Below are positions 16,686 through 44,386 of a DNA stretch of 64,000 bases, in pieces. The DNA is taken from positions 12,581 through 76,580 of the forward strand of contig JACPGK010000002.1 of assembly GCA_016182495.1 (NCBI GenBank). The letters are read 5' to 3'. The notes under the pieces are model-generated. The model ran no database searches. It worked only from the letters and a program-made list of their open reading frames with translations, and had not been told where the DNA came from. A program made the translations under genes and the position numbers. Position 1 is the first letter of the stretch. Each line of letters starts with the position of its first letter. Origin of the DNA: Candidatus Kerfeldbacteria bacterium. GTDB lineage: Bacteria; Patescibacteriota; Patescibacteriia; UBA9570.

Positions 16686-17912
16686 ATGCGCCAATCCAAA
16701 TTGTTTACAAAAACACTGAAACACTTGCCAAAAGATGAAGCCAGTAGTAATGCCCAATTATTATTGAAAGGTGGTTATATCGATAAACTCATGGCCGGGG
16801 TATATTCCATATTGCCGTTAGGGTGGGCCGTAGTCAATCGCCTAGAAGCTATTATTCGATCAGAGCTTAATTCCATTGGTGCTCAAGAAGTATTTTTGCC
16901 CGCCTTGCAGCCAAAAGAATTATGGAGCACTACCGGTCGGTGGGAAACAATGAAGGATATTTTATATACCGTGCAGCAAGCTGATCAAGAATATACCCTT
17001 GGATCAACCCACGAAGAAGTGGTGGTGCCGCTGATGCAAAAATTTGTTCATTCGTACAAAGATTTACCAGTGGCAGTATATCAGTTTCAAACAAAATTTC
17101 GTCGTGAATTGCGTCCAAAATCTGGAATTTTACGTGGCCGGGAGTTTCTCATGAAGGATCAATACTCATTTCATGTTTCGGTGGAAGATTTGAATCGTTA
17201 TTACGATATGATGAAACAAGTGTACCAAAGAATTTTTCAGCAGGTTGGCTTAGGTGACGTGACGCATCTGACATTTGCTTCGGGTGGTGCTTTTTCTAAA
17301 TATTCCCATGAATATCAAACTGTGACACCGGCCGGAGAAGATACTATTTATATTTGTCAGCAATGTCAATTAGCCATTAATCGTGAAATTAAAGCTGATA
17401 CCCCCGTTTGTCCACAGTGCCAAGGTCAAGAATTTATAGAACAGCGAGCCATTGAAGTTGGTAATATTTTTAAGCTGATGGCTAAGTTTACGGAGCCATT
17501 TAATTTTATGGTTGCTGGAGCAGATGGTAAACCACAACCTGTCATTATGGGTTGCTATGGTATAGGCATTGGCCGGATGTTAGGAACTATTGTAGAAATT
17601 CATCACGATGCCCATGGTATTATTTGGCCTGAAGCAGTTAGTCCATATACGTTTCATTTACTTAACTTGCACAACGATAGTGTTCAAGCAGACCAAGTGT
17701 ATACAACTTTACAACTGGCTGGTCATACGGTACTATTTGACGACCGTGCAGTATCTGCTGGCATAAAATTTGCCGATGCCGACTTGTTGGGACTGCCAAT
17801 TCGATTAGTGGTTAGTCCTAAAACACAAGGCAAAATTGAATATCGGCGGCGAGTAAATGATACCACGGCCTTAGTTGGTTTAGACGAACTCGTTAAGCGT
17901 CATGTTCAATAA
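16686..17912 (+). CDS. proS: Prolyl-tRNA synthetase, bacterial-type core lacking INS editing domain
   Basis: N-terminus aligns with bacterial ProRS (GVYSILPLGWAV..ELWSTTGRWE), motif 2 FRRELRPKSGILRGREFLMKDQYSFH, motif 3 GCYGIGIGR; 408 aa. Confidence 0.85.
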   Translation: MRQSKLFTKTLKHLPKDEASSNAQLLLKGGYIDKLMAGVYSILPLGWAVVNRLEAIIRSELNSIGAQEVFLPALQPKELWSTTGRWETMKDILYTVQQADQEYTLGSTHEEVVVPLMQKFVHSYKDLPVAVYQFQTKFRRELRPKSGILRGREFLMKDQYSFHVSVEDLNRYYDMMKQVYQRIFQQVGLGDVTHLTFASGGAFSKYSHEYQTVTPAGEDTIYICQQCQLAINREIKADTPVCPQCQGQEFIEQRAIEVGNIFKLMAKFTEPFNFMVAGADGKPQPVIMGCYGIGIGRMLGTIVEIHHDAHGIIWPEAVSPYTFHLLNLHNDSVQADQVYTTLQLAGHTVLFDDRAVSAGIKFADADLLGLPIRLVVSPKTQGKIEYRRRVNDTTALVGLDELVKRHVQ

Positions 17913-18951
17913 TTTATTTGGGCGAGTTTCAAAAGATATCGGTATCGATTTAGGTACGGCTAATACGTTAGTGTACGTGCGTGATCGTGGCATTGTAATT
18001 AATGAACCATCCGTAGTGGCAGTCAATGAACGCACCGGACAAATTTTGGCAGTCGGTAAAGAAGCTAAAGAAATGGTTGGTAAAACTCCGCCGCACATTA
18101 CCGCTACTCGACCATTAGCCAAAGGCGTAGTATCCGATTTTGAAGTTACTGAAAAAATGCTCAAGCATTTTATTGATAAAGTTCATCGTGAAACGTTTTC
18201 AGTGTTCCCTAAACCGCGCGTTGTTATTGCTATTCCGTTAGGAGTGACTGAAGTTGAACGCAAAGCCGTTGAAGATGCTGCTCGCCAAGCCGGTGCTCGA
18301 GAAGTTATCTTAGTAGAAGAAGCCATGGCCGCAGCTATTGGAGCTCGTTTACCGGTACGTGATTCAATGGGCACGATGATTGTTGATATTGGCGGAGGAA
18401 CCACTGAAATTGCCGTTATTTCACTTGGTGGGGTAGTGAATTGGCGATCATTGCGTACAGCGGGGGATGATCTTAATCAAGATATTATTAATTATGCCCG
18501 AGATCAGTTTAATTTATTGATTGGTGAACGCACTGCCGAACGCTTAAAAGTAAGCATTGCCACCACTATGCCAATCGACGAAGATATATTTTTGCCTATA
18601 CGAGGGCGTGATTTAGTCACTGGTCTACCGAAAGAATTACAGTTTACTAATCATAATGTGCGTGAAGCCATTGATCGTACCATTGCTTTAATCGTTGATA
18701 ATATTAAGGCCACTATTGAAAGCACTCCGCCCGAGTTATTAGCTGATATTTACGAGCGTGGAATTGTATTAAGCGGTGGTGGCGCTTTATTACCCCAACT
18801 GGATGATCGTATTCGAGGCGAAACTAATGTGCCAGTGCGAGTAGTGGACGATCCACTGACGGCCGTGGTTCGTGGCACCGGTTTAATTTTAGAAAACTTA
18901 GATGAACTACGTGATGTTATTACGGTAGGGCATACCAATTCAACAGAATAA
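17902..18951 (+). CDS. mreB: Rod shape-determining protein MreB
   Basis: IGIDLGTANTLVYV, DIGGGTTEIAVISLGG; immediately upstream of mreC-mreD-PBP2. Confidence 0.9.
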   Translation: MFNNLFGRVSKDIGIDLGTANTLVYVRDRGIVINEPSVVAVNERTGQILAVGKEAKEMVGKTPPHITATRPLAKGVVSDFEVTEKMLKHFIDKVHRETFSVFPKPRVVIAIPLGVTEVERKAVEDAARQAGAREVILVEEAMAAAIGARLPVRDSMGTMIVDIGGGTTEIAVISLGGVVNWRSLRTAGDDLNQDIINYARDQFNLLIGERTAERLKVSIATTMPIDEDIFLPIRGRDLVTGLPKELQFTNHNVREAIDRTIALIVDNIKATIESTPPELLADIYERGIVLSGGGALLPQLDDRIRGETNVPVRVVDDPLTAVVRGTGLILENLDELRDVITVGHTNSTE

Positions 18952-18954
18952 TAT

Positions 18955-19746
18955 TTGGGTATGACATTTTGGAAACACCATTGGCTAAGACTAATCATAG
19001 TAGGTGTAGTATTGTTGGGTGGTATAACGTTGTTGCGCAATACTATCAGTCGAACCATTGTTCAGCCGCTGGCTGGATTTTTTTATGAACAAGGTAATCA
19101 ATGGTGGCCGTGGCATGCCACTACCACTGATCAACTCCATACAGAAAACCAACAATTAAAAACTCAATTAGCCACAGCGGTGGGTGAAATAAGCAACTTA
19201 GAATTGCAGCTGCAACATTATCAAGAATATGAAGTGCAATTGAAATTTGCTGAACAGAATGAACTAACATTGGTACCAGCTCGTATTATTGGACGGGTTG
19301 GGCAAAGTACCACCACACAAATTTTGAATCTTAATCAAGGTAGCGAGGCTGGTATTGCTGTTGGCGATCCAGTAATTTATGCCGCTGGCATTGTGATTGG
19401 ATTGGTTCATAGTGTTGATGCTACTAGCGCAACGGTTTTACCAATTACTAGCCCATTGGTTAAGCTGCAAGCCGTTACCCAAACCAATCAGCAATCCACC
19501 GGCTTAATTAGCGGTGCTTTTGGTACTAGTTTAACCATGGATTATATCTTGAAAGATCAAACTGTGGCAATAGGTGATATTGTTATTACCAATGGTCACG
19601 ATACTGCTATCCCGCCAGGCTTATTAATTGGCACGGTAGCTAGCATTGCTACCGATACCAGTGATTTATTTACTACTGCTCAACTTAGTCCGTATTTACC
19701 CTATACCAGCGATTCAATCGTATCGGTCATAGTATCAAATCTATGA
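18955..19746 (+). CDS. mreC: Rod shape-determining protein MreC
   Basis: N-terminal TM, coiled-coil (LKTQLATAVGEISNLELQLQ), C-terminal beta domain; position between mreB and mreD. Confidence 0.75.
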   Translation: MGMTFWKHHWLRLIIVGVVLLGGITLLRNTISRTIVQPLAGFFYEQGNQWWPWHATTTDQLHTENQQLKTQLATAVGEISNLELQLQHYQEYEVQLKFAEQNELTLVPARIIGRVGQSTTTQILNLNQGSEAGIAVGDPVIYAAGIVIGLVHSVDATSATVLPITSPLVKLQAVTQTNQQSTGLISGAFGTSLTMDYILKDQTVAIGDIVITNGHDTAIPPGLLIGTVASIATDTSDLFTTAQLSPYLPYTSDSIVSVIVSNL

Positions 19747-20240
19747 AACGAGGGTTGGTGATTATTTGTGTCAGCGTTATCGTACTAGGTACCGTATTAG
19801 AATTGGCTACCTTGTGGGCGGCACCGGTCACCCCTTTGCCGATTAGTCTTATCTTGATCAATTGTATTGCTTTGGCCTTGGTGTTGCCGTTTAAGGCAGT
19901 GATTGGATTGGGCGTAGTGCAAGGCCTACTGGCCGATAGTTTTTGGTACGGATCAGGTAGTATTTATACAGTAGCTATTATCGTCAGTATAGTTTTACTG
20001 CATTGGTTGCGACGTAGTTGGTTTAAACAAACTAATTTGCCAACCCAATTTTTGTTAAGTTTGTTAGCGTATGCCACGGGATACTGTTTGCTGGTACTAG
20101 CAGCGCGTATTTTTTTTACGTTCGGTAGTAGTGTGATTGATCCATGGTTACAGCCAAACGGTAGTGTACTGTTTGGTGGCATAGTGCTGGGAGCAACCAT
20201 AAGCGTACTAGTAGCCAAAATATATGACAGATTTGTTTAA
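19743..20240 (+). CDS. mreD: Rod shape-determining protein MreD
   Basis: 165-aa, 4-5 TM protein following mreC with overlapping stop/start. Confidence 0.65.
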   Translation: MKRGLVIICVSVIVLGTVLELATLWAAPVTPLPISLILINCIALALVLPFKAVIGLGVVQGLLADSFWYGSGSIYTVAIIVSIVLLHWLRRSWFKQTNLPTQFLLSLLAYATGYCLLVLAARIFFTFGSSVIDPWLQPNGSVLFGGIVLGATISVLVAKIYDRFV

Positions 20241-22155
20241 CACATTGCCCGATCAATCAATTCGTGATAAACGAATTGCGCAGCACTACGCCCAACGAGA
20301 AGTAGTAGTTGATATTCCGTATCAAACGGCCCAGCAAGATTTTTTAAGCGCCCCGATTAGTTCGGCTAAATTACGCTTTTTTTTGTTAGGCTTGTTTACC
20401 ATTTTGGGTATGCTATTTGTACGGTTACTGTATTTGCAAATTTGGCATGGCCAAAACTATGTGGCCGTGGCCGAAGATAATCGTCTGCGGCTAGAATATT
20501 TACCAGCAGCGCGTGGTATTATTTTTGATCGTACTGGCACACCATTAGTGCATAATATTCCTAATTTTACAGTTACTATCACACCAGCTGACTTGCCAAC
20601 TGAACCAATCATCTATGATAGCATCTTACAACAAACTGCTAATGCTCTAGCCGTATCGCTGATTGGGTTACAACAACAGGTAGTCGATCACGCTGCTGCG
20701 TTTCCTCATCAACCCTTAACCTTACAAGAATTTGTACCCTATGATCAGGCCTTGCAATTAGCTGCTCAAGTTGATTCTCTTCCTGGCGTGGCTGTAACCG
20801 TACTATCAGCTCGCCAGTACAGCGACGCTTTAGCCTATGCGCATGTGTTAGGATACCTCGGCAAAATTACCCCGGATGATTTACACAACCAATTACCAGA
20901 CGATTACTTGTTAACCGATCGGATTGGCCAAACTGGAGTAGAAGCTGTCTACGAAGCTAATTTACGTGGTCATAAAGGTCAACAACGCATCGAAGTCGAC
21001 GCTCTTGGTACTACCCAGGAAGTGGTGGCCGAAGAAGCGGCTCAACCCGGTGCTAACATTGTGCTAGCTATTGATCATGATTTGCAAACCACCTTGTATC
21101 AGGCATTAGCGGATACAGCCGAACAGCAACATCTCCCTGGCGGTGCAGCCGTAGCCATTGATCCACGGGATGGTTCAGTGCGAGCCTTGGTGAGTTATCC
21201 TAGTTTTGATAGCAATGCCTTTATTCAAGGATTATCCACTGCAGCCTATGACACTTTAACCACTGATAACCGTAAACCGTTATTTAATAAAGCCATTGCT
21301 GGAGAATACCCATCAGGTTCTACGTTTAAAGTAGTCATGGCAGCAGCGGCTTTGCAGGAGCAGGTGATCACGCCGGAGTATACAATCAATAGCACTGGCG
21401 GTATTCAAATTGGCCAGGCCGTATTTCCTGATTGGAAAAGTGGTGGTCATGGCGTCACCGCTGTGCGTAAGGCTTTAGCCGATTCAGTGAATACTTTTTT
21501 TTACATTGCTGGCGGCGGGATTTATCATCTCGAGAACAGATCAATTGAAGGGGGCTTGGGTATTGATCGAATTGATACCTATGCCGCTCGATTTGGCTTA
21601 GGTACGCAACGGGGGATTGATTTGCCTACCGAAGCAACTGGTTTTGTGCCTAGCCGTCAGTGGAAAGAACAATCACTCGGAGAACAATGGTATATTGGTG
21701 ATACCTATAATGTGTCGATTGGTCAGGGACAATTGTTGGTAACACCATTACAAGTAGCAGTGTATACAGCGGCCATTGCTAACAATGGCACTATCTATCA
21801 ACCGCAATTGGCTGAATATTTTACTGATCAAACTAATCAGGTTATTGCCACTATCCAACCAAAAGTTGAGCAAACCAACATTATTAATTCTTACTATTTA
21901 CAGGTGGTGCGCGAAGGCATGCGCCAAGCCGTGCTTGATGGTTCTGCTCGCAACCTAGCGACATTACCTTTTGCGGTAGCGGGTAAAACCGGCACAGCCG
22001 AAATTGCTGGTACTGATAAAACTCATTCTTGGTTTACCGCTTTTGCACCGTACGATGATCCTAGTTTGGTGATTACGGTATTAGTAGAAGAAGGTGGCGA
22101 AGGATACGCCGCTGCCTTGCCAATAGCACGCGCCGGTTTGGAAGAATATTTTTAG
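20224..22155 (+). CDS. mrdA: Penicillin-binding protein 2 (class B transpeptidase)
   Basis: SGSTFKV (SxxK), SVN, KTGTA motifs; N-terminal TM anchor; follows mreBCD. Confidence 0.85.
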   Translation: MTDLFNTLPDQSIRDKRIAQHYAQREVVVDIPYQTAQQDFLSAPISSAKLRFFLLGLFTILGMLFVRLLYLQIWHGQNYVAVAEDNRLRLEYLPAARGIIFDRTGTPLVHNIPNFTVTITPADLPTEPIIYDSILQQTANALAVSLIGLQQQVVDHAAAFPHQPLTLQEFVPYDQALQLAAQVDSLPGVAVTVLSARQYSDALAYAHVLGYLGKITPDDLHNQLPDDYLLTDRIGQTGVEAVYEANLRGHKGQQRIEVDALGTTQEVVAEEAAQPGANIVLAIDHDLQTTLYQALADTAEQQHLPGGAAVAIDPRDGSVRALVSYPSFDSNAFIQGLSTAAYDTLTTDNRKPLFNKAIAGEYPSGSTFKVVMAAAALQEQVITPEYTINSTGGIQIGQAVFPDWKSGGHGVTAVRKALADSVNTFFYIAGGGIYHLENRSIEGGLGIDRIDTYAARFGLGTQRGIDLPTEATGFVPSRQWKEQSLGEQWYIGDTYNVSIGQGQLLVTPLQVAVYTAAIANNGTIYQPQLAEYFTDQTNQVIATIQPKVEQTNIINSYYLQVVREGMRQAVLDGSARNLATLPFAVAGKTGTAEIAGTDKTHSWFTAFAPYDDPSLVITVLVEEGGEGYAAALPIARAGLEEYF

Positions 22156-22156
22156 T

Positions 22157-22185
22157 TTGACAGTTTCTGGATTGATCCGTATACT
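22157..22185 (+). promoter_or_regulatory. Sigma-70-like promoter TTGACA-N17-TATACT upstream of greA
   Basis: Consensus -35 at 22157-22162, 17-nt spacer, -10 TATACT at 22180-22185, about 30 nt before greA ATG. Confidence 0.6.
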
Positions 22186-22216
22186 AATACGCATCATAAT
22201 TTATTGATTCATTTTC

Positions 22217-22684
22217 ATGACTGACAAAACAACCTACGTTACCGAAGAGGGCTTAGCAAAATTGAAGCAGGAACTAGATTATTTAAAAACGACTAAGCGT
22301 AAAGAAATTGCTCATCGCATTGCTAGTGCTAAAGAACTCGGTGATTTATCAGAAAACGCCGAGTATAGTGATGCCAAAGAAGAACAGGGATTGATTGAGA
22401 ATAGAATTTTAGAGCTCGAAGAAACGTTGCGTCATATTGAGGTAATTAAAAAACCAAAAAAATCAACTACCGTGGTCATTGGATCAGTAATCGAAGTGTC
22501 TAATGATACCGGCAAAAAACAACAGTTTACCATTGTTGGTTCAAAAGAAGCCGCTCCGGGCGATGGCAAAATTTCTAACGAATCACCATTAGGCAGAGCC
22601 TTTTTGGGACGAAAACTTGACGAACAAGTTACCGTTACTGTACCACGTGGTACGATGATTTATACCATTAGCAAAATAGCTTAA
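22217..22684 (+). CDS. greA: Transcription elongation factor GreA
   Basis: 155 aa, N-terminal coiled-coil with acidic tip region, C-terminal FKBP-like domain (typical GreA length and layout). Confidence 0.8.
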   Translation: MTDKTTYVTEEGLAKLKQELDYLKTTKRKEIAHRIASAKELGDLSENAEYSDAKEEQGLIENRILELEETLRHIEVIKKPKKSTTVVIGSVIEVSNDTGKKQQFTIVGSKEAAPGDGKISNESPLGRAFLGRKLDEQVTVTVPRGTMIYTISKIA

Positions 22685-22685
22685 T

Positions 22686-24719
22686 GTGTCAGAACGCGAT
22701 TACCGTTTAGAAAAACTTCAGCAGTACAACAAAAAATTTGGCACGGCCTATCCGGCGCATAGTAACCGCAGTCATAGCATTGCTGTGTTACTCCAGCAGT
22801 TTGATCGTTTAACTGATCAAACAGTGATACTGGCTGGTCGTTTACGATCCAAGCGTGAGCATGGCAAATTAACATTTGCTGTAATCGAAGATGCTTCTGG
22901 CACAGTACAATTAGCCTTAAGTCAGCAGCAATTGGGCGTTGATCTCTACCAGTCTGTAGCTAGCTGGTATGATGTGGGTGATATTGTGGAGGTGACCGGC
23001 CAACCATTTACCACCAAAGCTGGCGAGCGTTCATTGTTAGTACAGGCCATTAGATTACTGACTAAGGCGTTGCAGCCGCTGCCAGAAAAATGGCATGGCT
23101 TACAGGATGAAGAAACGCGCTACCGTAAACGCTATCTGGACTTGTTGGTAGATCAAGATCTACGAAATTTATTTGTTAAGAAAGCTAAATTTTGGAATTC
23201 AATCCGTCAATTTCTACTGACTGAAGGATTCCTTGAGGTAGAAACTCCAGTATTAGAAACTACCCCTGGTGGGGCTGATGCCGAACCTTTTACGACCCAC
23301 CATAATGCCCTTGATATTGATTTATACTTGCGTATCTCGATGGGTGAACTATGGCAAAAACGATTAATGGTGGCCGGCTATGAAAAAACTTTTGAAATTG
23401 GTCGTCAATTTCGTAATGAAGGTATTAGCCCAGAACATTTGCAGGATTATACTCAAATGGAGTTTTATTGGGCCTATGCTGATTATCAAGACACGATGAA
23501 ATTAGTTGAACGGATGTATAAACATTGCATCATGGAAACGTTTGGCACATTGCAGTTTACGATTCACAATTTTGTCGTAAATTTTGATCAGGCTTGGCCA
23601 TTACTCAATTACGTTGATACCATTCAACAGTACGCTGGCATTGATATTACCGCAGCCAGTGTCACGCAACTGCAACAACGCTGTGAGCAATTACATATTG
23701 CTATTGGTAGCGAACAAGTAAATCGCGCTCGCTTGTATGATAGTTTATGGAAATTTTGTCGTAAGCAAATTACTGGGCCAGCCTTTTTAGTTAATCACCC
23801 GGTGGAGGTATCACCCTTGGCCAAGCGGTTAGTTGATCAACCCCATTTGGTTGAACGCTATCAAGTAATTGTTGCTGGTAGCGAATTAGGTAATGGCTAC
23901 TCGGAACTGAACGATCCAATTGATCAACAACAACGATTTATTGAGCAAGCTAAGTTACGCACAGCTGGAGATGTCGAAGCGCAACGGCATGATCATGATT
24001 TTGTGGAGGCTCTAGAACTAGGCATGCCGCCAACGTCTGGATTTGGTGTCAGCGAACGATTATTTTCTTTTTTGGCTGACCGACCAATTCGCGAATGTGT
24101 TTTATTTCCGTTATTACGGCCTAAAATTAATGTAGTTGATCAAACCCTGGTTGAATTTTCAGCTGGTATTAGTCGAGCAGCCGCTCTCGATTGGATGACA
24201 ACAACCGTGACCGATGTTAACTTACAGCGACACATGTTAGCCACCGAGGCCTTAATGCGCGCCTTGGCCGAACGGTTTAAAGTTGTGGCGGTGGAAGCCT
24301 GGGGGATTGCTGGATTATTGCATGATATAGATTGGGAGAACACCACTCCAGAGACGCATAGCATGGTAGGAGCCGATTGGCTTGAGCAGCGTGGTGTGCA
24401 CCCAGCCATTGTGGCAGCTGTGCGCGAGCATAATTACCATCACAACCTGCCGCCTAGCTCATTGTTATCGAAATGTTTAATGTCGTTAGAACAACTGACC
24501 GGTTTTATTATGGCGGTAGCTTATGTACGACCAGATCGTACGCTAGCCACTGTTGAGGCGAAGAGTGTTAAAAAGAAACTCAAAGATAAAGCCTTTGCCC
24601 GCGGAGTTGACCGTGCTATGATCGAACAGTGTCAACAGCTCACTGGCTTAACCTTAGATGAAGCCATCGCTGTATGTTTAAAAGCCATGCAGGCGATTGC
24701 TAGTGATTTAGATTTATAA
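22686..24719 (+). CDS. lysS: Lysyl-tRNA synthetase (class II) fused to a C-terminal HD-domain
   Basis: N-terminal OB anticodon-binding, class II motifs (FRNEG, motif 3 GMPPTSGFGVSERL), then about 200-aa extension with H..HD..H..HxxH pattern (GLLHDIDWE, VREHNYHH). Confidence 0.85.
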   Translation: MSERDYRLEKLQQYNKKFGTAYPAHSNRSHSIAVLLQQFDRLTDQTVILAGRLRSKREHGKLTFAVIEDASGTVQLALSQQQLGVDLYQSVASWYDVGDIVEVTGQPFTTKAGERSLLVQAIRLLTKALQPLPEKWHGLQDEETRYRKRYLDLLVDQDLRNLFVKKAKFWNSIRQFLLTEGFLEVETPVLETTPGGADAEPFTTHHNALDIDLYLRISMGELWQKRLMVAGYEKTFEIGRQFRNEGISPEHLQDYTQMEFYWAYADYQDTMKLVERMYKHCIMETFGTLQFTIHNFVVNFDQAWPLLNYVDTIQQYAGIDITAASVTQLQQRCEQLHIAIGSEQVNRARLYDSLWKFCRKQITGPAFLVNHPVEVSPLAKRLVDQPHLVERYQVIVAGSELGNGYSELNDPIDQQQRFIEQAKLRTAGDVEAQRHDHDFVEALELGMPPTSGFGVSERLFSFLADRPIRECVLFPLLRPKINVVDQTLVEFSAGISRAAALDWMTTTVTDVNLQRHMLATEALMRALAERFKVVAVEAWGIAGLLHDIDWENTTPETHSMVGADWLEQRGVHPAIVAAVREHNYHHNLPPSSLLSKCLMSLEQLTGFIMAVAYVRPDRTLATVEAKSVKKKLKDKAFARGVDRAMIEQCQQLTGLTLDEAIAVCLKAMQAIASDLDL

Positions 24720-24727
24720 TTATTGCT

Positions 24728-26002
24728 ATGCTTGATATTAAATATATTCGTGAACATAGTGCTATTGTACAGCAAGCAGCCAAACATAAGGGGATTGATA
24801 TTAATATCGAGCAATTGTTGTTAGTTGATGATCAGCGGCGTAGTGTACAAAAAAAACTTGATGATTTACGGGCCGAACAAGGCAGAGCTAATCAGGCAAT
24901 TGCTCAAGCCGTGGCCGAAGATAAAGCCACTCGCATTGCCACCATGCGTACCTTGGCTGATACTATTAAAATTCTAGAACAGGAATTTCAAACTGTCGAC
25001 CAACTGTTTGAACAATTAATGTATCAAGTGCCCAATGTACCTGCTAACACAGTACCGATTGGAGCTGATGCTTCAGCCAATGTTGAATTAAGCACTGTTG
25101 GACAACCACCAGTTTTTTCCTTTACACCACTTGATCACTTGACTTTGGGAAAACAACTTAAATTGATTGATGCTGAACGCGGCGTTAAAGTGGCTGGTAG
25201 CAGAGCCTACTATTTAACTGGCCGTGGTGCTCAATTAGAACTCGCCTTAATGTGCTATGGGCTTGATTTTTTACGGGCCCGGGGGTTTACCCAACTGGCA
25301 ACGCCACTAATGGCTGCTGGAGAATTTTTTTATGGCACCGGACATTTTCCTTGGAACGAAAATGAAACCTTTAAAGCACTTGATAAGGATCGTGAATATT
25401 ATTTAATCGGGTCAGCTGAAATTACCTTGTGCGCTTATCACGCTCACGAAACATTACAGCAGGCTGAATTGCCAAAACGCTATACAGCCTGGACACCATG
25501 TTTTCGCACAGAAGTGGGTAGTTACGGTAAAGATACTAAGGGCTTATATCGGGTGCGTCAATTTAATAAGGTCGAGCAAGTGATGTTGTGTGTCAATGAT
25601 GATACCAGTGCTATGCAATTGTTTGAAGAGTTAATGCGTAATGCCGAAGATTTTTTACAGTCGTTGGAGTTACCTTATCGAGTGATGGAGCTATGTACTG
25701 GTGATATGGGCGCTGGCCAAAAATATAAGCGCGATATTGAAACCTGGATGCCATCACGACAAAGTTATGGTGAAACGCACTCCTGTTCGTGGTTGGGTGA
25801 TTTTCAAGCCCGGCGGCTTAATTTGCGTTATCGGGTTGCTGGCAAAACCAACTATTGTCAAACACTCAATAATACCTTAGTGGCTTCACCGCGCATGCTC
25901 ATTCCGTTATTAGAAAATCATCAACACGCTGATGGCTCGGTACAATTACCAGCCGTACTGCATAAATATATGAACGGCCTCACCGTACTGAAGCCAGAGT
26001 AG
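24728..26002 (+). CDS. serS: Seryl-tRNA synthetase
   Basis: MLDIKYIRE N-terminal coiled-coil arm, class II core, 424 aa. Confidence 0.85.
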   Translation: MLDIKYIREHSAIVQQAAKHKGIDINIEQLLLVDDQRRSVQKKLDDLRAEQGRANQAIAQAVAEDKATRIATMRTLADTIKILEQEFQTVDQLFEQLMYQVPNVPANTVPIGADASANVELSTVGQPPVFSFTPLDHLTLGKQLKLIDAERGVKVAGSRAYYLTGRGAQLELALMCYGLDFLRARGFTQLATPLMAAGEFFYGTGHFPWNENETFKALDKDREYYLIGSAEITLCAYHAHETLQQAELPKRYTAWTPCFRTEVGSYGKDTKGLYRVRQFNKVEQVMLCVNDDTSAMQLFEELMRNAEDFLQSLELPYRVMELCTGDMGAGQKYKRDIETWMPSRQSYGETHSCSWLGDFQARRLNLRYRVAGKTNYCQTLNNTLVASPRMLIPLLENHQHADGSVQLPAVLHKYMNGLTVLKPE

Positions 26003-26013
26003 GGGAGTGCTCA

Positions 26014-26943
26014 CTAACGCTCTAGCGCTAATTGAATTAAACGGTCTAATAACTGTGGAAACGGTATTCCAGCTACTCGAGCAGCTTCTGGTAACAAACT
26101 GGTATTGGTCATGCCGGGAATAGTATTGGCTTCTATAAAATAAAACAGTTGGGTATCACTTTCAAACATAAAATCAACCCGTAACATACCATGGGCTTTA
26201 ACGGCCTTAAATGTTCGACGAGTTAAATTTTCCAAGGTAGTGCGTAAGTCGTCGGTCAGTGGTGCCGGACACAAATGGGTTGACCCGCCATCTTCATATT
26301 TTGAAGCGTAATCATAAAAACTACCCTTTTGCGGGATAATTTCTATTGGTGGCAATACTACCGTATCAGCTAATGATCCAATCACCCCAACGGTATATTC
26401 TTTACCTTTAATAAAGCGTTCAACGATTACCGTTTGACTGTGTTCAAAGGCTACCGCCATGCCACGCTGTAAATCGGCAAATGATTCCGGAATGGTTACA
26501 CCAACACTCGAACCAGCATTACCAGGTTTAATGACGCACGGCAGTTGAATTTTTCGAAAATCAATTTGTTGATTACGATCAAATAATTCAAATTCAGGCG
26601 TTAACATGCCATGAGTCATCACTAAACGTTTAGTAGCTTCTTTATCCATGCACAAGGCCGAACAAAATACATTTGGTCCAACGTAGGGGAGAGCTAACAT
26701 TTCGCATAAGCCTTGAATGGTACCATCTTCACCAAAGCGGCCATGCAGCACTGGAAAAACCACATCAATGTTGCCGGCCAAAGCAGCCTGTAAAAAATCA
26801 GCTAATTGATCTTTTGGATCATACTGCACAACCGTATAACGATCAGTCGGAATAGCGGCAGCTACATTTTTACCTGATACCAATGAAACAGCCCGTTCAT
26901 TAGATTGCCCACCACTCAATACTGCTACAATCGGTTTACTCAT
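26014..26943 (-). CDS. ddl: D-alanine--D-alanine ligase
   Basis: VAVLSGGQSNERAVSLVSG N-terminus and ATP-grasp fold length (309 aa). Confidence 0.8.
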   Translation of the reverse strand: MSKPIVAVLSGGQSNERAVSLVSGKNVAAAIPTDRYTVVQYDPKDQLADFLQAALAGNIDVVFPVLHGRFGEDGTIQGLCEMLALPYVGPNVFCSALCMDKEATKRLVMTHGMLTPEFELFDRNQQIDFRKIQLPCVIKPGNAGSSVGVTIPESFADLQRGMAVAFEHSQTVIVERFIKGKEYTVGVIGSLADTVVLPPIEIIPQKGSFYDYASKYEDGGSTHLCPAPLTDDLRTTLENLTRRTFKAVKAHGMLRVDFMFESDTQLFYFIEANTIPGMTNTSLLPEAARVAGIPFPQLLDRLIQLALER

Positions 26944-26973
26944 GGATAGTAGTATACTATACTAGCAAGACTG

Positions 26974-28074
26974 ATGCCAATTGTTCGACTTAATCAACCG
27001 CCAAAATATCACAATCCTTACTTTCAAAAGCCAAAATACTCTCATTGGTTTTGGCAGCATGATGGTTGGGCGTATTTGGCAATCGCTATTTTATTGATTG
27101 GAGCAGGCTTGTTTTTTATGATCCAGCAACGTTGGTTGTGGATTGATCATATCACCATTAGCGGCAATGCGTATTTGACGGTTGATCAACTGACTCAACC
27201 AGTGCGGACTGTGCTGGCGAAAAAACGATGGTGGTTTTTTCCGCAACGATCATATCTATTTGTTGATACGACTGCTATTTATAATGAAATTACAGCTACT
27301 CTAGGTACTAATTTTGCTTTAGAACAACTGGTGGTAGATAAACAGTTTGCCGATACAATTCAAATTACGGTAGTTGAGCGCGTACCCGGACTAGTGTATA
27401 TCATTGGCCAAACGTACTATTACATCGATCAAGCTGGTGTAATCACTCAAGCCGTGGCCCAAGCAGAGGATCTCGACCCTCATTTTCCTCGCATTCGTGA
27501 CTTAAACACCAATCGCGGAATAACGGTTAATCAACTGGTCGTTAAACCAGAGGTGGTGGACTTCATTATTCATTTAAACGGTACGTTTACCGATCAACTC
27601 GGTTTTAATATATCTGAATATACTCTTTTGCCGGTGTCGTGTTTAGAAAAACAATTTGTCGCCGAACAATTATTAGCCGATGATATTTCAGAAACAACTG
27701 ATCCGGTGTTACAAGAAAAAAAGCGGGCCGTTTTGGAACAATTACAAAATGATACCATTAGCGTTGATGAAAGTTTGCAACAACTTGAACAATTAAAACA
27801 ACAAGGGGTGTTAGAGAATCAAAATACCGCTGGTACAAATTCAACTTTTATTCAATTGCAACCAGAGTATATTGCCACGGATTGTGATTTTACTCGTGTC
27901 ATTCGAGATGTGGCGGTGGTTACACAAGAAGGCCCCAGTGTGTATTTTGATACCACTGTGCCAATACAACAGCAATTAAATAATGTAGCAGCAGTTAAAG
28001 CCAGTACCATACCTGATTTGACTACGATTACATATATCGACGCGCGTTATCCTGATAGGGTTTATTTTGATTAA
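26974..28074 (+). CDS. Cell division protein FtsQ/DivIB-like (POTRA)
   Basis: N-terminal TM, then ITISGNAYLTVDQL POTRA-like start; adjacent to ddl as in dcw clusters. Confidence 0.6.
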   Translation: MPIVRLNQPPKYHNPYFQKPKYSHWFWQHDGWAYLAIAILLIGAGLFFMIQQRWLWIDHITISGNAYLTVDQLTQPVRTVLAKKRWWFFPQRSYLFVDTTAIYNEITATLGTNFALEQLVVDKQFADTIQITVVERVPGLVYIIGQTYYYIDQAGVITQAVAQAEDLDPHFPRIRDLNTNRGITVNQLVVKPEVVDFIIHLNGTFTDQLGFNISEYTLLPVSCLEKQFVAEQLLADDISETTDPVLQEKKRAVLEQLQNDTISVDESLQQLEQLKQQGVLENQNTAGTNSTFIQLQPEYIATDCDFTRVIRDVAVVTQEGPSVYFDTTVPIQQQLNNVAAVKASTIPDLTTITYIDARYPDRVYFD

Positions 28075-28087
28075 TGTGTCGTTTAAG

Positions 28088-28110
28088 ATATATTGTGCGA
28101 CGCAATATAT
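28088..28110. promoter_or_regulatory. Imperfect palindrome ATATATTG-N7-CAATATAT just after ftsQ-like stop
   Basis: 8-bp inverted arms at 28088-28095 and 28103-28110; possible operator, function unknown. Confidence 0.2.
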
Positions 28111-28145
28111 CTATTAAAATATAGCTCCCCTTCATACCTCTAGAA

Positions 28146-28175
28146 TTGACTTTTTTTTGTCACATATGGTATATA
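28146..28175 (+). promoter_or_regulatory. Sigma-70-like promoter TTGACT-N18-TATATA upstream of the GC-rich gene
   Basis: -35 28146-28151, -10 28170-28175, in AT-rich host-like DNA about 185 nt before ATG 28361. Confidence 0.5.
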
Positions 28176-28360
28176 GGGACGTTTTATTATCTATAAAACA
28201 TAGGCTAATAAATCAGGAGAACGTAGCTTGGCGTTGTTCTCAATTATAAGCCTAAGTATTAGGCTAGCTCTTTACCAAACCTTTCTTACCCGGGAGCAGT
28301 TCAGCTCCCAACATCCAAGTTGACTAGGTGACGCCAAACCTAGCAACTGGAAAGGGCGCC

Positions 28361-29569
28361 ATGAAGCGCTCGATCGTCCTTCTCATCACGCTGGTGACCA
28401 TGGTGGTCGCTGGCATCCCCAACAACTCCGTCGCGTGTGGGGTTACCCCCACCAGCTCGACCAACGAGAGGTTGGATGAGCATGGTGATACTTACACCAT
28501 CGACAACGACGACAACACTTACGCGTTGATCACCGACCTCTACGCCGACATCTACCCGGTGTTGCCCAACCAGAGCTACTCGGGATTCCATCTCGAGGCC
28601 TACTCCGCCTGCCTGGACAACGTCATCAACGTGAACATCGGGTACTGGGATGATGGTGTTGAGTTGTACGTCAACATCATCACCGAGGAGTTCCTGGTCA
28701 ACGATGGGGATAGCATCTCGTTTTCCTTCTCCCCTGTCGTCACTACTTCATTTCAGGTCATCATCATCGACTATAGCTGTGAGCTTGGTGTTCGTGAGAT
28801 GGCTGCGGTGGCGACGTACGAGTCCTGCAACGGCATCGACGACACCTGCGACGGTGCGGTTGACGAGGGCTACGACCTCGATGCCGATGGCTACACCTCG
28901 TGCGGCGGCGACTGTGTCGACACCGACCCCACGGTCAACCCCGGCGCCACCGAGCTGTGCGACGAGCAGGACAACGACTGCGACGGTGCCACCGACAACG
29001 ACTGCGACGGTGATGACGACACCACGCCGGTCGAGGACGACGATACGACGTCCGATGACGACACCACCGCGGACGACGACGACACGCCACCCGACGACGA
29101 CACGCCACCCGACGATGACACGACCTCGGGAGATGACGACACCACGGCCGATGACGACACCACGGCCGATGACGATACGACGGTGAACGACGATGACACG
29201 ACCTCGGGAGATGACGACACCACGGCCGATGACGACACCACTACGGTGGACGATGACGATACGACGGTGAACGACGATGACACCACGCCGCCCGAGGATG
29301 ACAACGACGGCGACGGGTACACGATGAACGACGGCGACTGCGATGACGCCGACAACGACGTCTACCCGGGCGCGGTCGAGCTGTGCGACGAGCAGGACAA
29401 CGACTGCGACGGCAACGTCGACGAGGATCCCGACGACTGCGGCGACTCCGGTCTGGACCGGGTGATCGCCTGCGGTGGGGGCTGCGACGCCTCCACCGGT
29501 GGTAGCCAGCAGGCCTGGATGGGTCTGCTGGTGGCGGTGATCCTGCTGCTGCGTCGCAGGCAGCAGTGA
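28361..29569 (+). CDS. Secreted acidic repeat protein with MopE-like putative metal-binding Cys motifs and MYXO-CTERM-like tail (GC-rich, foreign-looking)
   Basis: Signal peptide MKRSIVLLITLVTMVVAG; three CxDxDxDGxxxC..PGAxELCDEQDNDCDG modules; DDDTT(A/S/V) tandem repeats; C-terminal CGGGC..hydrophobic..RRRQQ; GAC/ACC/GCC-rich codons unlike neighbours. Start at ATG 28361 (GGAAAGGG SD) preferred over GTG 28328. Confidence 0.75.
   Translation: MKRSIVLLITLVTMVVAGIPNNSVACGVTPTSSTNERLDEHGDTYTIDNDDNTYALITDLYADIYPVLPNQSYSGFHLEAYSACLDNVINVNIGYWDDGVELYVNIITEEFLVNDGDSISFSFSPVVTTSFQVIIIDYSCELGVREMAAVATYESCNGIDDTCDGAVDEGYDLDADGYTSCGGDCVDTDPTVNPGATELCDEQDNDCDGATDNDCDGDDDTTPVEDDDTTSDDDTTADDDDTPPDDDTPPDDDTTSGDDDTTADDDTTADDDTTVNDDDTTSGDDDTTADDDTTTVDDDDTTVNDDDTTPPEDDNDGDGYTMNDGDCDDADNDVYPGAVELCDEQDNDCDGNVDEDPDDCGDSGLDRVIACGGGCDASTGGSQQAWMGLLVAVILLLRRRQQ
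29011..29295 (+). repeat. In-frame tandem repeats (18-nt GATGACGACACCACGGCC-like units nested in an approximately 84-nt higher-order repeat)
   Basis: Repeated gatgacacgacctcgggagatgacgacaccacggccgatgacgacacca block seen twice about 84 nt apart; encodes DDDTT[AS] tracts. Confidence 0.8.
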
Positions 29570-29603
29570 TCAATAGAGAAGGGTAAAGGTTCAGGAGGAA
29601 TCG

Positions 29604-29642
29604 GGGGAGGAGAGCTGTACAAAAAACACCGCTCTACTCCCC
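29604..29642. other. GC-rich hairpin between convergent genes (12-bp stem with 1 mismatch, 15-nt loop), no U-tract
   Basis: GGGGAGGAGAGC..GCTCTACTCCCC inverted repeat 35 nt after the GC-rich gene stop. Confidence 0.4.
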
Positions 29643-29690
29643 TACCCAAATAAGCCAGCTACAATTTCACAATGTACCGTAGCTAGTTTA

Positions 29691-30941
29691 TTACGGTAAA
29701 TACAACATCGGGTCAACCGGAATGCCGTTCAACAACACACTAAAATGCACATGTGAACCAGTAGAAAACGCCCCGGCTCCAGTGGTGCCGGGCAAGCCCC
29801 CAACATAAGCTACCACTTGGCCTTGGTTCACAGGTTGATCTGGTTCAATATTAGGAGCAATGCCGCTAACGTGCCCATACACCGTAGCAAAGTTATCCGC
29901 ATGCACAATCATCACATAGGCATAACTGGGTGAGCCATCAAATCGTACTACGGCCACTACCCCGCTATCAGCAGCTTTGAGGGGCGTGCCTTGGGGCGCG
30001 GCAATATCAATGGCATCGTGTTCAAAATAGCGCCGAAAAATATAATTAGGATCATGAAACGTAGTGGTGATTACTCCATTCACTGGCCAAATCGGTTGAA
30101 ACTCGGTTGGTAAGGTGAAATTAGCATTATCGTTTATGCCTGAACCAGTTTGGGCTTTAGTGAGTTGATCAAGGGTAGTGCGAGCAGATTTTTCTAAGGC
30201 AGATAATTCTGAATGAACGGCGGTTTGCTCATCTTGCAAATTTTTAACTAATTGCTGAAATTTAGCTTCATCATTTTGCACTTCGGTTAACAGGTTTTTT
30301 TTGTAATTTTTTTCACCAGCTAAAGAATCTTGCCGCACTTCTAATTCTTGTTCTTTTTCTTCGGCAGTTTGCTGACGATCGGATAAAACATCCTGATCTT
30401 CTTGCAGTTGTTGTTTTAAGGCTTGCAAATCAAGCAGGGCTTTGGTAAATTGCGTATTGACTTTTTCGGTATACTCAACCTGTTCGGAAAATTCCGACAA
30501 GGTTTGGTGAGTTAAGGCCACTTCAAGATAAGTTTGTTGTTCAAAATTATACAAATCAAGCACTAAAGCGCTGATTTGACCTTTTTTATCATCGACCTGT
30601 TCAGTTGTAGTAGCAATATCTATGGCCAGTTGATCAATTTGTAGCCCGAGCGTTTCAATTTCGTTACCGGTTTGCTCAATTTCAGTTTCATTAATAATAA
30701 TATCTTGATCAATCACTTCTAATTGACTGGTTAAATTTAATTTTTCTTGCTGTTTGGTTTTTAAGTTTTCTCGATAGGTATTAATTTTTTCTTCCAAACC
30801 ATCATTTTCCGATCGTTTTCGTTCAATATCAGCATTTAAACGATTTAATTTTTGTTGGGTAGCCGAATCATCCGCTGCTAGCGCCGGCCTAGCACACAGT
30901 ACCATCAGTAAACAAAGGCTACGAAGTGTGATCCATTTCAT
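29691..30941 (-). CDS. M23 family peptidase with N-terminal coiled-coil (EnvC/NlpD-like murein hydrolase or activator)
   Basis: Signal peptide, long heptad coiled-coil, C-terminal HDAID and HVHFSV (HxxxD, HxH) M23 motifs. Confidence 0.8.
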   Translation of the reverse strand: MKWITLRSLCLLMVLCARPALAADDSATQQKLNRLNADIERKRSENDGLEEKINTYRENLKTKQQEKLNLTSQLEVIDQDIIINETEIEQTGNEIETLGLQIDQLAIDIATTTEQVDDKKGQISALVLDLYNFEQQTYLEVALTHQTLSEFSEQVEYTEKVNTQFTKALLDLQALKQQLQEDQDVLSDRQQTAEEKEQELEVRQDSLAGEKNYKKNLLTEVQNDEAKFQQLVKNLQDEQTAVHSELSALEKSARTTLDQLTKAQTGSGINDNANFTLPTEFQPIWPVNGVITTTFHDPNYIFRRYFEHDAIDIAAPQGTPLKAADSGVVAVVRFDGSPSYAYVMIVHADNFATVYGHVSGIAPNIEPDQPVNQGQVVAYVGGLPGTTGAGAFSTGSHVHFSVLLNGIPVDPMLYLP

Positions 30942-43266: not shown

Positions 43267-43278
43267 AATTACACTAGG

Positions 43279-44385: not shown

Positions 44386-44386
44386 A

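Follow-up and report, generated by a model that had tools for sequence, protein, structure and literature searches.

Much of bacterial diversity belongs to the CPR bacteria (Patescibacteria), which are believed to live attached to a host cell. Outside Saccharibacteria, we know of almost no molecules that mediate this attachment or the choice of host. The window analysed here, a 64-kb stretch of a Candidatus Kerfeldbacteria genome (its SerRS and a Candidatus Kerfeldbacteria MAG protein share 100% identity), contains a single gene that is far richer in GC than its surroundings. This locus raises the question of whether the island is genuine, what its gene may encode, and how such a composition arose and persisted in this host.

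The GC content of positions 28280-29645 is 60.8%. The island ORF contains 61.8% GC, versus 42.1% for the remaining window, and stands well outside the distribution of background 1242-nt windows (mean 42.1%, sd 1.7%, maximum 46.7%; z ~11.6). No second segment as GC-rich as the island was detected in the 64 kb. A GC-rich island in a low-GC genome, as proposed in a preliminary description of this DNA, was thus confirmed; the 65-70% GC given there applies to positions 28800-29600 but not to the 5' third, where GC is 50-57%. A change-point fit placed the 5' edge of the island at 28289. The 3' edge, near ~29640, is less sharp, since GC also reaches ~50% at the end of the M23 gene. The island measures 1.3 kb.

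The codon usage of the island is foreign to the host. GC3 of the island ORF is 0.828, outside the range of the 51 other ORFs (0.343 +/- 0.029, maximum 0.412), and every sub-segment of the coding sequence has a GC3 of 0.77-0.94. Codon fractions in the island and the host are, respectively, 74% and 13% for GAC, 100% and 19% for GAG, 100% and 17% for ATC, 52% and 11% for CTG, and 0% and 44% for TTA. A native gene might reach a high GC merely through an unusual share of certain amino acids (Asp, Thr, Gly, Cys, Pro). Indeed, Asp makes up 23.6% of the protein and Thr 11.9%, and GC1 is somewhat elevated (0.61). However, GC2 is normal (0.416) and the excess lies at synonymous sites: recoding the protein with host codon usage gave a GC3 of only 0.315 and a total GC of 0.438, against observed values of 0.83 and 0.62. 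The amino-acid explanation is therefore refuted, its remaining probability being negligible, and the codon-usage switch noted in the preliminary description is borne out.

An abrupt compositional step could also result from an assembly chimera, in which a fragment of a high-GC organism is misjoined into a CPR contig. The gene contains exact 36- and 54-nt repeats, which break short-read assemblies. The junctions were compared with per-run assemblies (k=31 contigs) obtained with a different assembler from three other sequencing runs. In two runs, the contigs L001 (SRR12113422) and L002 (SRR12113385) cross the 5' junction and match the window up to position 28980 at 99.98% and 100%, respectively. 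In the third run, L004 (SRR12113419) crosses the 3' junction and matches positions 32861-29383 at 100%. These contigs end at 28980 and 29383, exactly 30 nt (k-1) into each copy of the 36-nt repeat. The breaks inside the gene are thus due to this internal repeat, and they do not coincide with the compositional junctions; the repeat number within 28981-29382 comes from the present assembly alone. Moreover, a chimera would need two false joins, and four further genomes, sequenced in unrelated projects, have this architecture too. The island is real genomic DNA and is not mis-assembled; the chimeric contig considered in the preliminary description is extremely unlikely. An exact look-up of the island protein with both possible starts returned no record, because the independent assemblies break inside the gene. 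One candidate for an island-free allele, L003, was rejected, as its tail is a Nextera adapter.

The island contains exactly one real gene, preceded by an SD-like GGAAAGGG; the minus-strand ORFs are shadow ORFs. The intact genes described on either side were also recovered: an ftsQ-like gene on the left (POTRA_1, 22.5 bits against a cutoff of 23, with synteny backing the assignment) and an M23 peptidase gene on the right (71.8 bits). The features of the locus are listed in the following table.

Table. Features of the island and its borders, with positions counted from the first letter of the window.
Feature	Positions	Strand	Remarks
Conserved quasi-palindromic element	28076-28101	+	directly 3' of the ftsQ-like stop
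Candidate sigma-70-type promoter	28146-28175	+	sequence reading: TTGACT (28146-28151), 18 nt, (TGn)TATATA (28170-28175)
5' leader, ~180 nt	28176-28360	+	AT-rich to 28288, GC-rich from 28289
Leader hairpin GGGAGC-AGTTCA-GCTCCC	28292-28309	+	-12.1 kcal/mol, z = -5.0
SD-like GGAAAGGG	28349-28356	+	coordinates verified
Island coding sequence	28361-29569	+	402 aa from ATG 28361; 413 aa from alternative GTG 28328
Predicted N-terminal signal peptide, aa 1-26 (...NNSVA/C)	28361-28438	+	only strong Kyte-Doolittle peak, 19-residue window
Orphan N-terminal domain, aa 27-150	28439-28810	+	divergent F5/8-type-C (discoidin)-like beta-sandwich, predicted
MopE-type Cys-rich motifs, first block, aa 151-215	28811-29005	+	PF11617; instance 28901-28987
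Acidic Asp/Thr spacer, aa 216-312	29006-29296	+	97 residues (45 D, 27 T, 7 P); low complexity
Third MopE-type motif block, aa 313-360	29297-29440	+	PF11617; instance 29339-29413
36-nt exact direct repeat encoding ELCDEQDNDCDG	28951-28986 and 29377-29412	+	direct reading
C-terminal tripartite tail	29441-29569	+	Cys motif ACGGGCD, TM helix WMGLLVAVILLL, Arg cluster RRRQQ, stop
Hairpin GGGGAGGAGAGC...GCTCTACTCCCC	29604-29642		between the convergent island and M23 genes, near the right island edge

The encoded protein contains 16 Cys and has a net charge of about -104. Cleavage of the predicted signal peptide would leave a Cys as the first mature residue. The domain that follows is presumed to form a ligand-binding head. 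A word-index search with this domain found no homologs, and an exhaustive HMMER search gave 2 hits in all. One of the two hits is P0242, where residues 79-148 of the island protein match each of the two PF00754 domains (library-wide E = 8e-7); BLASTP against these two domains gave E-values of 2e-9 and 5e-7. A Pfam scan of the island protein returned no direct PF00754 match at E <= 0.1; the N-domain of the corresponding protein in a related genome, L079, gave a weak match to this family. A search of PDB sequences with the island protein gave no hit. A single-sequence AlphaFold2 model of residues 25-215 was all-beta but unusable (pLDDT 35).

For PF11617, 3 stretches of the protein matched, with a score of 64.8 bits (cutoff 27; E = 7.9e-18). 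The acidic spacer is encoded by degenerate 18/21-nt tandem repeats, whose number is known from this assembly alone, and includes a 54-nt exact repeat (29110-29163 and 29188-29241). The tail, ending with ...VIACGGGCDASTGGSQQAWMGLLVAVILLLRRRQQ at the extreme C-terminus, runs from a Cys motif through a TM helix to an Arg-rich end. It missed the cutoff of the MYXO-CTERM model TIGR03901 by 0.9 bit (19.1 against 20, E = 0.0013), and the analogous L079 tail gave no hit at E <= 0.1. In all the CPR sequence examined, such Cys-TM-Arg tails were present on GC-rich genes only. No CPBP/myxosortase (PF02517) was detected among the window proteins scanned, nor by a motif regex, and the +/-10 kb around the related islands gave no call either.

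From the kinds of domains present, we infer that the product is a secreted surface adhesin or host-attachment receptor anchored at its C-terminus. It would be exported by the Sec route through its signal peptide, and its tail would hold it in the membrane, serving as a plain type I anchor or being first cleaved and lipidated. The MopE-type Cys repeats, stabilised by disulfides or metal, may form a stalk together with the very acidic, extended spacer. This stalk would display the divergent discoidin-like beta-sandwich as a ligand-binding, probably glycan-binding, head.

We read this arrangement as a stalked adhesin whose design follows the logic of TraA, a polymorphic receptor that serves outer-membrane exchange in Myxococcus xanthus (PMC3325183; PMC11980579). 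The parts would follow each other in the same order: a type I signal peptide, a lectin-like beta-sandwich head, a stalk of Cys-rich repeats and a Cys-TM-Arg tail. As in TraA, relatives differ most in the head (L079 and L197: 78% versus 88% identity). The components themselves differ. The head of TraA is PA14 and its repeats are TIGR04201, whereas the island protein has a predicted discoidin-like head and PF11617 repeats, with no hit to PF07691 (PA14) or TIGR04201; its 97-residue Asp/Thr spacer is extra. The traB (OmpA-like) partner is absent, the neighbours being the ftsQ-like and M23 peptidase genes. A MYXO-CTERM tail comprises a motif with Cys, then a TM helix, then an Arg-rich end (PMC11980579); for TraA, tail processing has been assayed in E. 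coli with and without MrtX (PMC11980579). The tail of the island protein falls just under the cutoff, with no myxosortase seen, and its host is a CPR bacterium and not a member of the Myxococcota, whose genomes encode many proteins with this tag. CPR bacteria have, to our knowledge, neither an outer membrane nor the T2SS route used by TraA.

The PF11617 family is named after MopE, a copper-binding surface protein of Methylococcus capsulatus. The three motif copies of the island protein, well above threshold, follow the pattern C..D...PGA.E.CDG.DNDCDG in tandem modules, and the protein is predicted to be secreted, like the motif proteins of Myxococcota and other phyla. It differs from these in that the repeats are combined with the orphan, putatively discoidin-like head and the spacer, and no relative matches it over its full length. 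The best whole-protein hits reach 41% identity, align to the repeats only and extend over at most 64% of the protein. The gene also lies in a CPR genome of opposite codon usage, and metal binding is putative.

The protein had been described as of Myxococcota type. The kinds of domains support this, since PF11617 repeats and MYXO-CTERM-like tails are commonest in Myxococcota, and 9 of the 16 named top hits belong to Myxococcota or Deltaproteobacteria. The description is weakened by the missed MYXO-CTERM cutoff and by equally GC-rich MopE-motif proteins in another CPR lineage. Searches of 5.8 billion clusters and of 1.84 billion representatives gave neither a donor nor a close homolog of the N-domain. 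A PHROGs search gave no hit, and therefore nothing points to a phage origin.

The quasi-palindromic element that follows the ftsQ-like gene belongs to the host backbone. It forms the left border of a slot between this gene and the M23 peptidase gene, which are convergent. The element is also present 3' of ftsQ in four related genomes (L079, L082, L085 and L195) and in 108 metagenome stretches. These metagenome loci were obtained by a DNA-anchor search with the element, used in place of an FtsQ-based scan of JGI metagenomes, which returned nothing; a Ddl-based scan of 185k species genomes gave no close relative (best match 42% identical). In L079, L085 and L197, whose SerRS are 65-67% identical to that of the window, ftsQ is followed by a GC-rich MopE gene, with a GC3 of 0.72-0.81 against 0.19-0.34 for the host. 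The slot is empty in L082, and in L195 an IS30-like fragment lies at the same spot. A MopE gene was present at 0 of the 80 metagenome loci sharing the anchor element; where M23 was detected, it mostly lay within a few hundred nt of the anchor. In other CPR, GC3-outlier genes at this locus are not a general feature.

The number of genes held in the slot varies (1, 2, or at least 1). Common descent of three of the occupants is putative, because their N-domains are not demonstrably homologous (profile comparisons were weak, E = 0.015 and probability 3%, or null) and their leaders have no significant similarity. NJ trees of host proteins placed the empty-site genome in conflicting positions, and the SerRS tree nested it among the occupied ones; the host tree is thus ambiguous between one gain and several. 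Outside this slot, the Uhrbacteria locus L198 contains four tandem GC-rich genes (GC3 0.88-0.96), each with its own promoter. Two of them match PF11617 strongly above threshold and one matches below threshold. The L198 block includes a 120-nt palindromic spacer repeat, and no integrase was seen.

The GC-richness of slot genes over time was assessed in one sister pair, L079 and L197, compared without an outgroup. Fourfold-site divergence was 0.69 for the MopE gene and 1.26 for gene 2, versus 1.7-4.6 for 7 flanking genes, whose synonymous sites are saturated. GC3 is 0.805 in both MopE copies and is therefore not decaying in this pair. Exchanges between C and G made up 49% of the fourfold differences in the MopE gene and 46% in gene 2, compared to ~4-8% in the flanks. 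Between the two genomes, the AT-rich leader and spacers keep the same order, at 75-97% identity, and collinearity extends to the second gene and the 3' region. For this block, vertical descent fits better than two independent captures. The lower synonymous divergence of the island could mean that it is younger than the host split.

The segment has two features of a horizontally acquired genomic island, a deviant composition and codon usage and a patchy presence at an otherwise conserved locus. No mobility genes adjoining it, no flanking direct repeats and no tRNA genes in the window were found. An integron gene cassette was considered and rejected, with no intI nearby and no attC-like boundary common to the three Kerfeldbacteria-type islands. 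The preliminary description favoured acquired DNA domesticated under a host promoter, and one may suppose that this genome recently took up a single Myxococcota gene, which settled behind a pre-existing host promoter and has not ameliorated. The extreme GC3 and inverted codon usage are typical of a donor of 60-65% GC, MopE repeats and MYXO-CTERM-like tails are commonest in Myxococcota, and both the empty slot of L082 and the metagenome loci agree with such an event. This claim nevertheless fails on the related genomes: with equally GC-rich MopE genes in the same slot of L079, L085 and L197, the island is not the product of a simple one-off recent transfer. The GC-richness shared by the sister pair outlasts a host divergence saturated at synonymous sites. 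The searches yielded no donor and left the N-domain an orphan, and the island has no integrase, tRNA gene or flanking direct repeats. We thus consider a recent single acquisition distinctly unlikely. The explanation that we favour, and hold to be probable, is a genuine Kerfeldbacteria island with a gene for an anchored surface protein of Myxococcota-like, high-GC type, in a recurrent slot and with persistent GC-richness. The slot holds equally GC-rich MopE genes in relatives and no such gene in most CPR. Persistence would most likely come from a constraint on synonymous sites or nucleic-acid composition; repeated replacement out of high-GC sources is less likely.

Taken as the main cause, replacement would make the slot an insertion hotspot, in which high-GC surface-protein genes are captured independently or residents are repeatedly overwritten, so that the copies are always young. 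The sources would be high-GC donors, possibly including the bacterial host of the CPR cell, or other CPR; Patescibacteria have been reported to receive most of their HGT from other Patescibacteria (PMC12455944). The barely related or non-homologous N-domains and differing gene numbers of the occupants are consistent with this, as are the IS30-like fragment in L195 and the nesting of the empty-site genome in the SerRS tree. Synonymous divergence is also lower in the island than in the flanks, and its substitutions are G/C-stationary, as if accrued in high-GC genomes. Against this, collinearity between L079 and L197 covers the AT-rich leader, the spacer, the second gene and the 3' region, very large databases contain no donor sequence, and there is no recombinase or att-like repeat; we regard a hotspot as rather unlikely. 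A more speculative proposal, which we find very unlikely, is that Kerfeldbacteria and Uhrbacteria keep dedicated myxobacteria-style receptors, with a lectin-like head, Cys-repeat stalk and MYXO-CTERM-like anchor, whose donor-like, GC-rich coding is actively upheld by synonymous-site selection or by continual refreshment from the host pool. With such receptors, the cells would recognise high-GC bacterial hosts and dock onto them. Mimicry of homotypic receptors of the host might let them tap the contact-dependent membrane or lipid exchange needed by lipid-auxotrophic CPR, and the slot between ftsQ and M23 would be a host-specificity locus.

Under the favoured explanation of a recurrent slot with persistent GC-richness, the locus offers a testable candidate attachment protein, stalked and lectin-headed, with the head as its most variable part and with a defined slot whose content is not the same in all related genomes. 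A further point is an evolutionary puzzle, as genes with a GC3 of ~0.8-0.95 persist in genomes with a GC3 of 0.2-0.5, in at least two CPR classes, without the amelioration that theory predicts. If synonymous-site selection or recurrent replacement is the cause, compositional outliers in CPR genomes could not be read as recent HGT or contamination, and decontamination pipelines that trim them would remove exactly the host-interaction genes. A surface-protein locus far higher in GC than its AT-rich genome over evolutionary time is found in Borrelia, at vls. The present locus is similar in keeping a high GC, but the window has no silent cassette array, strong GC skew or sign of gene-conversion templates. 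The genomic islands described in Patescibacteria (PMC12455944) are likewise deviant segments with accessory envelope-related genes in streamlined CPR genomes. Here, by contrast, a single gene of Myxococcota-like type, with no mobility genes, occupies one conserved intergenic slot across deeply diverged genomes and its composition does not ameliorate. The text of that HGT survey mentions Myxococcota 0 times (PMC12455944).

Transcription of the gene would start at a host-type promoter in the AT-rich leader. The preliminary description had placed its -35/-10 in host-like DNA. The upstream region is indeed AT-rich and host-like, a design shared by every related case, with TTGACA-type promoters of comparable kind upstream of the GC-rich genes in L079, L085 and L198; the proposed -35/-10 itself was not reported by a formal consensus scan. 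A leader RNA or motif CTTTACCAAA common to three slot genes was dismissed, as it occurs at chance level (E ~0.08) and the leaders do not align. No 3'-flank similarity shared between the islands was found. Rfam and tRNA scans of the 64-kb window gave nothing, and the conserved element at the left edge of the slot matched no Rfam family; it folds with -11.9 kcal/mol (z = -2.8). The hairpin near the right edge of the island has no T-run and was not called as an intrinsic terminator. Its folding energies are -21.2 kcal/mol on the plus strand (z = -4.4) and -21.5 kcal/mol on the minus strand (z = -3.1).

Base composition changes sharply over a single gene of the window. In 200-nt windows, GC climbs from 0.34-0.40 to 0.49-0.69 between ~28200 and 29700, then drops again; the ORF at 28328/28361-29569 has 61.8% GC, against 42.1% in the remainder of the 64-kb window. 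Equal-length background windows (sd 1.7%, maximum 46.7% GC) place the island ~11.6 sd away, and no second segment of such GC was found within the 64 kb. A two-change-point likelihood fit gave 28289 as the 5' edge; the 3' edge is less sharp, since the M23 gene has ~50% GC in its own conserved 3' end. The GC excess is located at synonymous sites: GC3 is 0.828 in the island ORF versus 0.343 ± 0.029 in 51 other ORFs (maximum 0.412), and GC2 is ordinary (0.416). Codon choice is inverted between island and host (GAC 74% vs 13%, AAC 100% vs 28%, GAG 100% vs 19%, ATC 100% vs 17%, CTG 52% vs 11%, TTA 0% vs 44%). Recoding the protein with host codons gave a GC3 of 0.315 and a total GC of 0.438; together with the synonymous-site excess, this excludes an odd amino-acid composition as the cause. 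Thus the GC-rich island and the switch to foreign-type codon usage, first noticed from the sequence alone, were confirmed by formal calculation, the island lying outside the host range.

The window is of typical CPR content. Its seryl-tRNA synthetase is 100% identical to a "MAG: Candidatus Kerfeldbacteria bacterium" protein on a 114-kb NCBI contig, and its genes form a housekeeping and envelope set (MreBCD, PBP2, GreA, several aminoacyl-tRNA synthetases, Ddl, and further DnaE, RodA/FtsW, PriA and others). No tRNA genes or Rfam matches were detected across the window. An aspartyl/lysyl-type tRNA synthetase (677 aa, 22686-24719) has an extra C-terminal HD-domain match; this fusion is also found in the related-genome loci L079, L085 and L195 and is absent from L082 and L196. 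On the minus strand, 42172-44448 encodes two adjoining DUF3048 paralogs in tandem, of 364 and 389 aa.

The preliminary description had left open a chimeric contig. Contigs assembled independently, run by run, with a different pipeline were retrieved by exact-protein look-up of both flanking genes. L001 (SRR12113422, a 41-kb contig) matches window 16974-28980 at 99.98% identity and L002 (SRR12113385) matches 23995-28980 at 100%, both extending ~690 nt beyond the 5' compositional junction; L004 (SRR12113419) matches 32861-29383 at 100% and spans the 3' junction. The island is not an assembly chimera. The contig ends at 28980 and 29383 lie exactly 30 nt (k-1, k=31) into the copies of a 36-nt exact repeat, indicating that the breaks are induced by the repeat and not by the junctions. 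Independent support covers the island except the central Asp/Thr repeat stretch, 28981-29382. The tail of a further per-run contig, L003, was considered as an alternative allele and proved uninformative: positions 3659-3680 are Nextera transposase adapter (CTGTCTCTTATACACATCT), a read-through in a public assembly that can be mistaken for an allele.

Features of the island, its gene product (residues counted from ATG 28361), its surroundings and related loci
Feature	Location	Strand or orientation	Remarks
ftsQ-like gene	26974-28074	convergent with M23 gene	left neighbour of island
Quasi-palindrome, 26 nt	28076-28101		GTGTCGNNTAASATATATTGTRCGAC; directly 3' of ftsQ-like stop
Exact repeat, 36 nt, two copies	28951-28986 and 29377-29412		encodes ELCDEQDNDCDG
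M23 peptidase gene	29691-30941	convergent with ftsQ-like gene	right neighbour of island
Hydrophobic signal peptide	residues 1-26		ends ...SVA/C
Orphan N-terminal domain	residues 27-150
MopE-type Cys motifs	residues 151-215 and 313-360		PF11617, 64.8 bits (cutoff 27), three stretches
Spacer	residues 216-312		45 Asp, 27 Thr; degenerate 18/21-nt repeats in DNA
Tail	residues 361-402		ACGGGCD...WMGLLVAVILLLRRRQQ; TIGR03901 MYXO-CTERM, 19.1 bits (cutoff 20)
Gene 2	L079 19121-20821; L197 12195-13556	+	3' of MopE gene; GC3 0.85
Four tandem GC-rich genes	L198 4861-12112	+	7-kb block, includes the gene for P0079

The island protein contains 23.6% Asp and 16 Cys, with a net charge of ~-104. A word-index search among 5.8 billion clusters returned no homologs of the N-domain, and HMMER, run exhaustively against 1.84 billion representatives, only two weak relatives. 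One of these is a Paenibacillaceae glycoside-hydrolase-like protein, matched within both its PF00754 (F5/8 type C, discoidin) domains (...IGYWDDGVELY...FSFSPVVTTSFQVII vs ...LQYWDDGVWQD...FQFAPVITTKFRLLV; BLASTP E-values 2e-9 and 5e-7). The single-sequence AlphaFold2 model (residues 25-215) was unusable (pLDDT 35) and hinted at beta strands only. Sequence search of the PDB and of PHROGs gave no relatives, and no myxosortase was seen in the window. The succession of signal peptide, lectin-like head, Cys-rich stalk and a tripartite tail (Cys motif, TM helix, Arg cluster) is the design reported for the myxobacterial receptor TraA (PMC3325183; PMC11980579). Unlike TraA, the island protein has neither a PA14 domain nor the TIGR04201 repeat, and its gene has no traB neighbour. 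Being built from different domain families, it would resemble TraA in its working and not as a member of the TraA family. From its sequence, we read the product as a putatively stalked, Myxococcota-like protein that would act as a surface adhesin or as a receptor in host attachment.

The relatives compared are serS neighbourhoods from genomes with SerRS 58-78% identical mutually and to that of the window. L079 (GCA_040960375.1) has the order ddl, ftsQ, a 617-aa PF11617 (MopE) protein, a second secreted protein (gene 2) and M23; in L085 (GCA_030698395.1) ftsQ is followed by a PF11617 protein cut by the contig end, and in L082 ftsQ adjoins M23 directly, with a 96-nt spacer. The MopE genes have a GC3 of 0.81 (L079) and 0.72 (L085) and gene 2 of 0.85, against 0.19-0.34 in the hosts. 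The L079 MopE protein likewise terminates GGGGCGCNSG...LLMLFMSRRR, and across all CPR sequence examined this Cys-TM-Arg tail is confined to GC-rich genes. The window and L079 N-domains match weakly, in the discoidin-like segment (E = 0.015, hhalign probability 3%), L079 also matching PF00754 weakly; the L085 N-domain matched none of the other occupants' N-domains. Homology among these domains is not demonstrable. The three islands shared no significant similarity in their leaders or their 3' flanks. We conclude that the island gene sits in a lineage-specific slot between ftsQ and M23. NJ trees of host proteins conflict, placing the empty-site genome inside or outside the occupied group, so that one ancient gain with loss is not separable from several gains.

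The quasi-palindrome following ftsQ is conserved in deeply diverged CPR genomes (L079, L082, L085, L195 and the metagenome loci L087-L166). Used as a DNA anchor, it was found in 108 metagenome stretches, and both orientations are seen between the convergent genes. The element has a folding energy of -11.9 kcal/mol (z = -2.8) and matches no Rfam family; a role as terminator, operator or promoter -10 region is conceivable. M23 lies a few hundred nt or less from the anchor in most metagenome loci where it was detected; the 80 loci examined all lacked a MopE gene in that position and rarely had GC3 outliers. In L195, right after the anchor and at the contig end, 16727-16852 (minus strand) resembles by eye an IS30-family transposase C-terminus (...LNNRPRKGLNYLTPNEV...); this putative transposase fragment hints that the slot attracts insertions. 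In L196, a ~130-nt GC-rich structured stretch between inverted repeats GAATCTATAAATTCG and CGAATTTATAGATTC (14399-14660) occupies the position of ddl in other relatives.

L197 (SRR22387842), from a sister genome of L079, has the identical block order ftsQ, MopE, gene 2, M23, gltX. Fourfold-site identity between the two is 28-42% for seven flanking genes (saturation-corrected divergence 1.7-4.6, pooled ~2), 68% for the MopE gene (0.69) and 55% for gene 2 (1.26). MopE amino-acid identity is only 84%, with a minimum of 78% in the head domain, and the two copies have the same GC3 (0.805). Among fourfold differences, C<->G transversions account for 49% in the MopE gene and 46% in gene 2, versus ~4-8% in the flanks. 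Neutral decay at the flank rate could not have left a GC3 near 0.8, and host-type mutation would not yield the C<->G predominance. The coding parts might be younger than the host split and have diverged in a GC-rich regime. We favour instead that selection or biased conversion kept the synonymous sites of these genes G/C-ending within the CPR lineage: the AT-rich leader, the inter-gene spacer and the non-coding 3' parts are collinear, with 75-97% identity, a shared framework that speaks for such maintenance over younger coding parts. Thus, from one genome pair without an outgroup, the GC-rich coding appears to be maintained and not decaying. The gene 2 product (566 aa in L079) has a signal peptide, identity between its L079 and L197 copies, which differ by a large indel, is 66%, and it belongs to no family in Pfam, NCBIfam or PHROGs; public gene calls contain spurious opposite-strand ORFs in this region. 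A 31-45-nt palindromic mini-repeat (TCGAACGGCTTAGCGAAGCGTCTAAGTGAGA) lies on either side of the L079 MopE gene (16550-16594 and 18956-19000); both copies fall in indels relative to L197, which gives the element a MITE-like look and suggests recent insertion.

The island had been interpreted as acquired DNA under a host promoter. Foreign-type coding and putative host-type expression signals hold, but a simple single acquisition in the window genome does not, since GC-rich MopE genes share the slot in L079, L085 and L197 and, in the one pair compared, GC3 persists. A large survey of HGT in Patescibacteria describes many islands mostly exchanged among Patescibacteria, and the sections considered here contain no description of MopE-type or non-ameliorating genes; its text makes no mention of Myxococcota (PMC12455944). 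The design recurs in CPR, as indicated by L198, a Candidatus Uhrbacteria locus (GCA_002793515.1) encoding the MopE protein P0079. The four genes of its block have a GC3 of 0.88-0.96, versus 0.40-0.51 for the genome, and all carry signal or lipoprotein peptides; PF11617 is strongly above threshold in two and sub-threshold in a third (19.7 bits, cutoff 27). Their spacers contain a ~120-nt palindromic repeat (copies 96% identical) followed by a consensus promoter, TTGACA...TATAAT.
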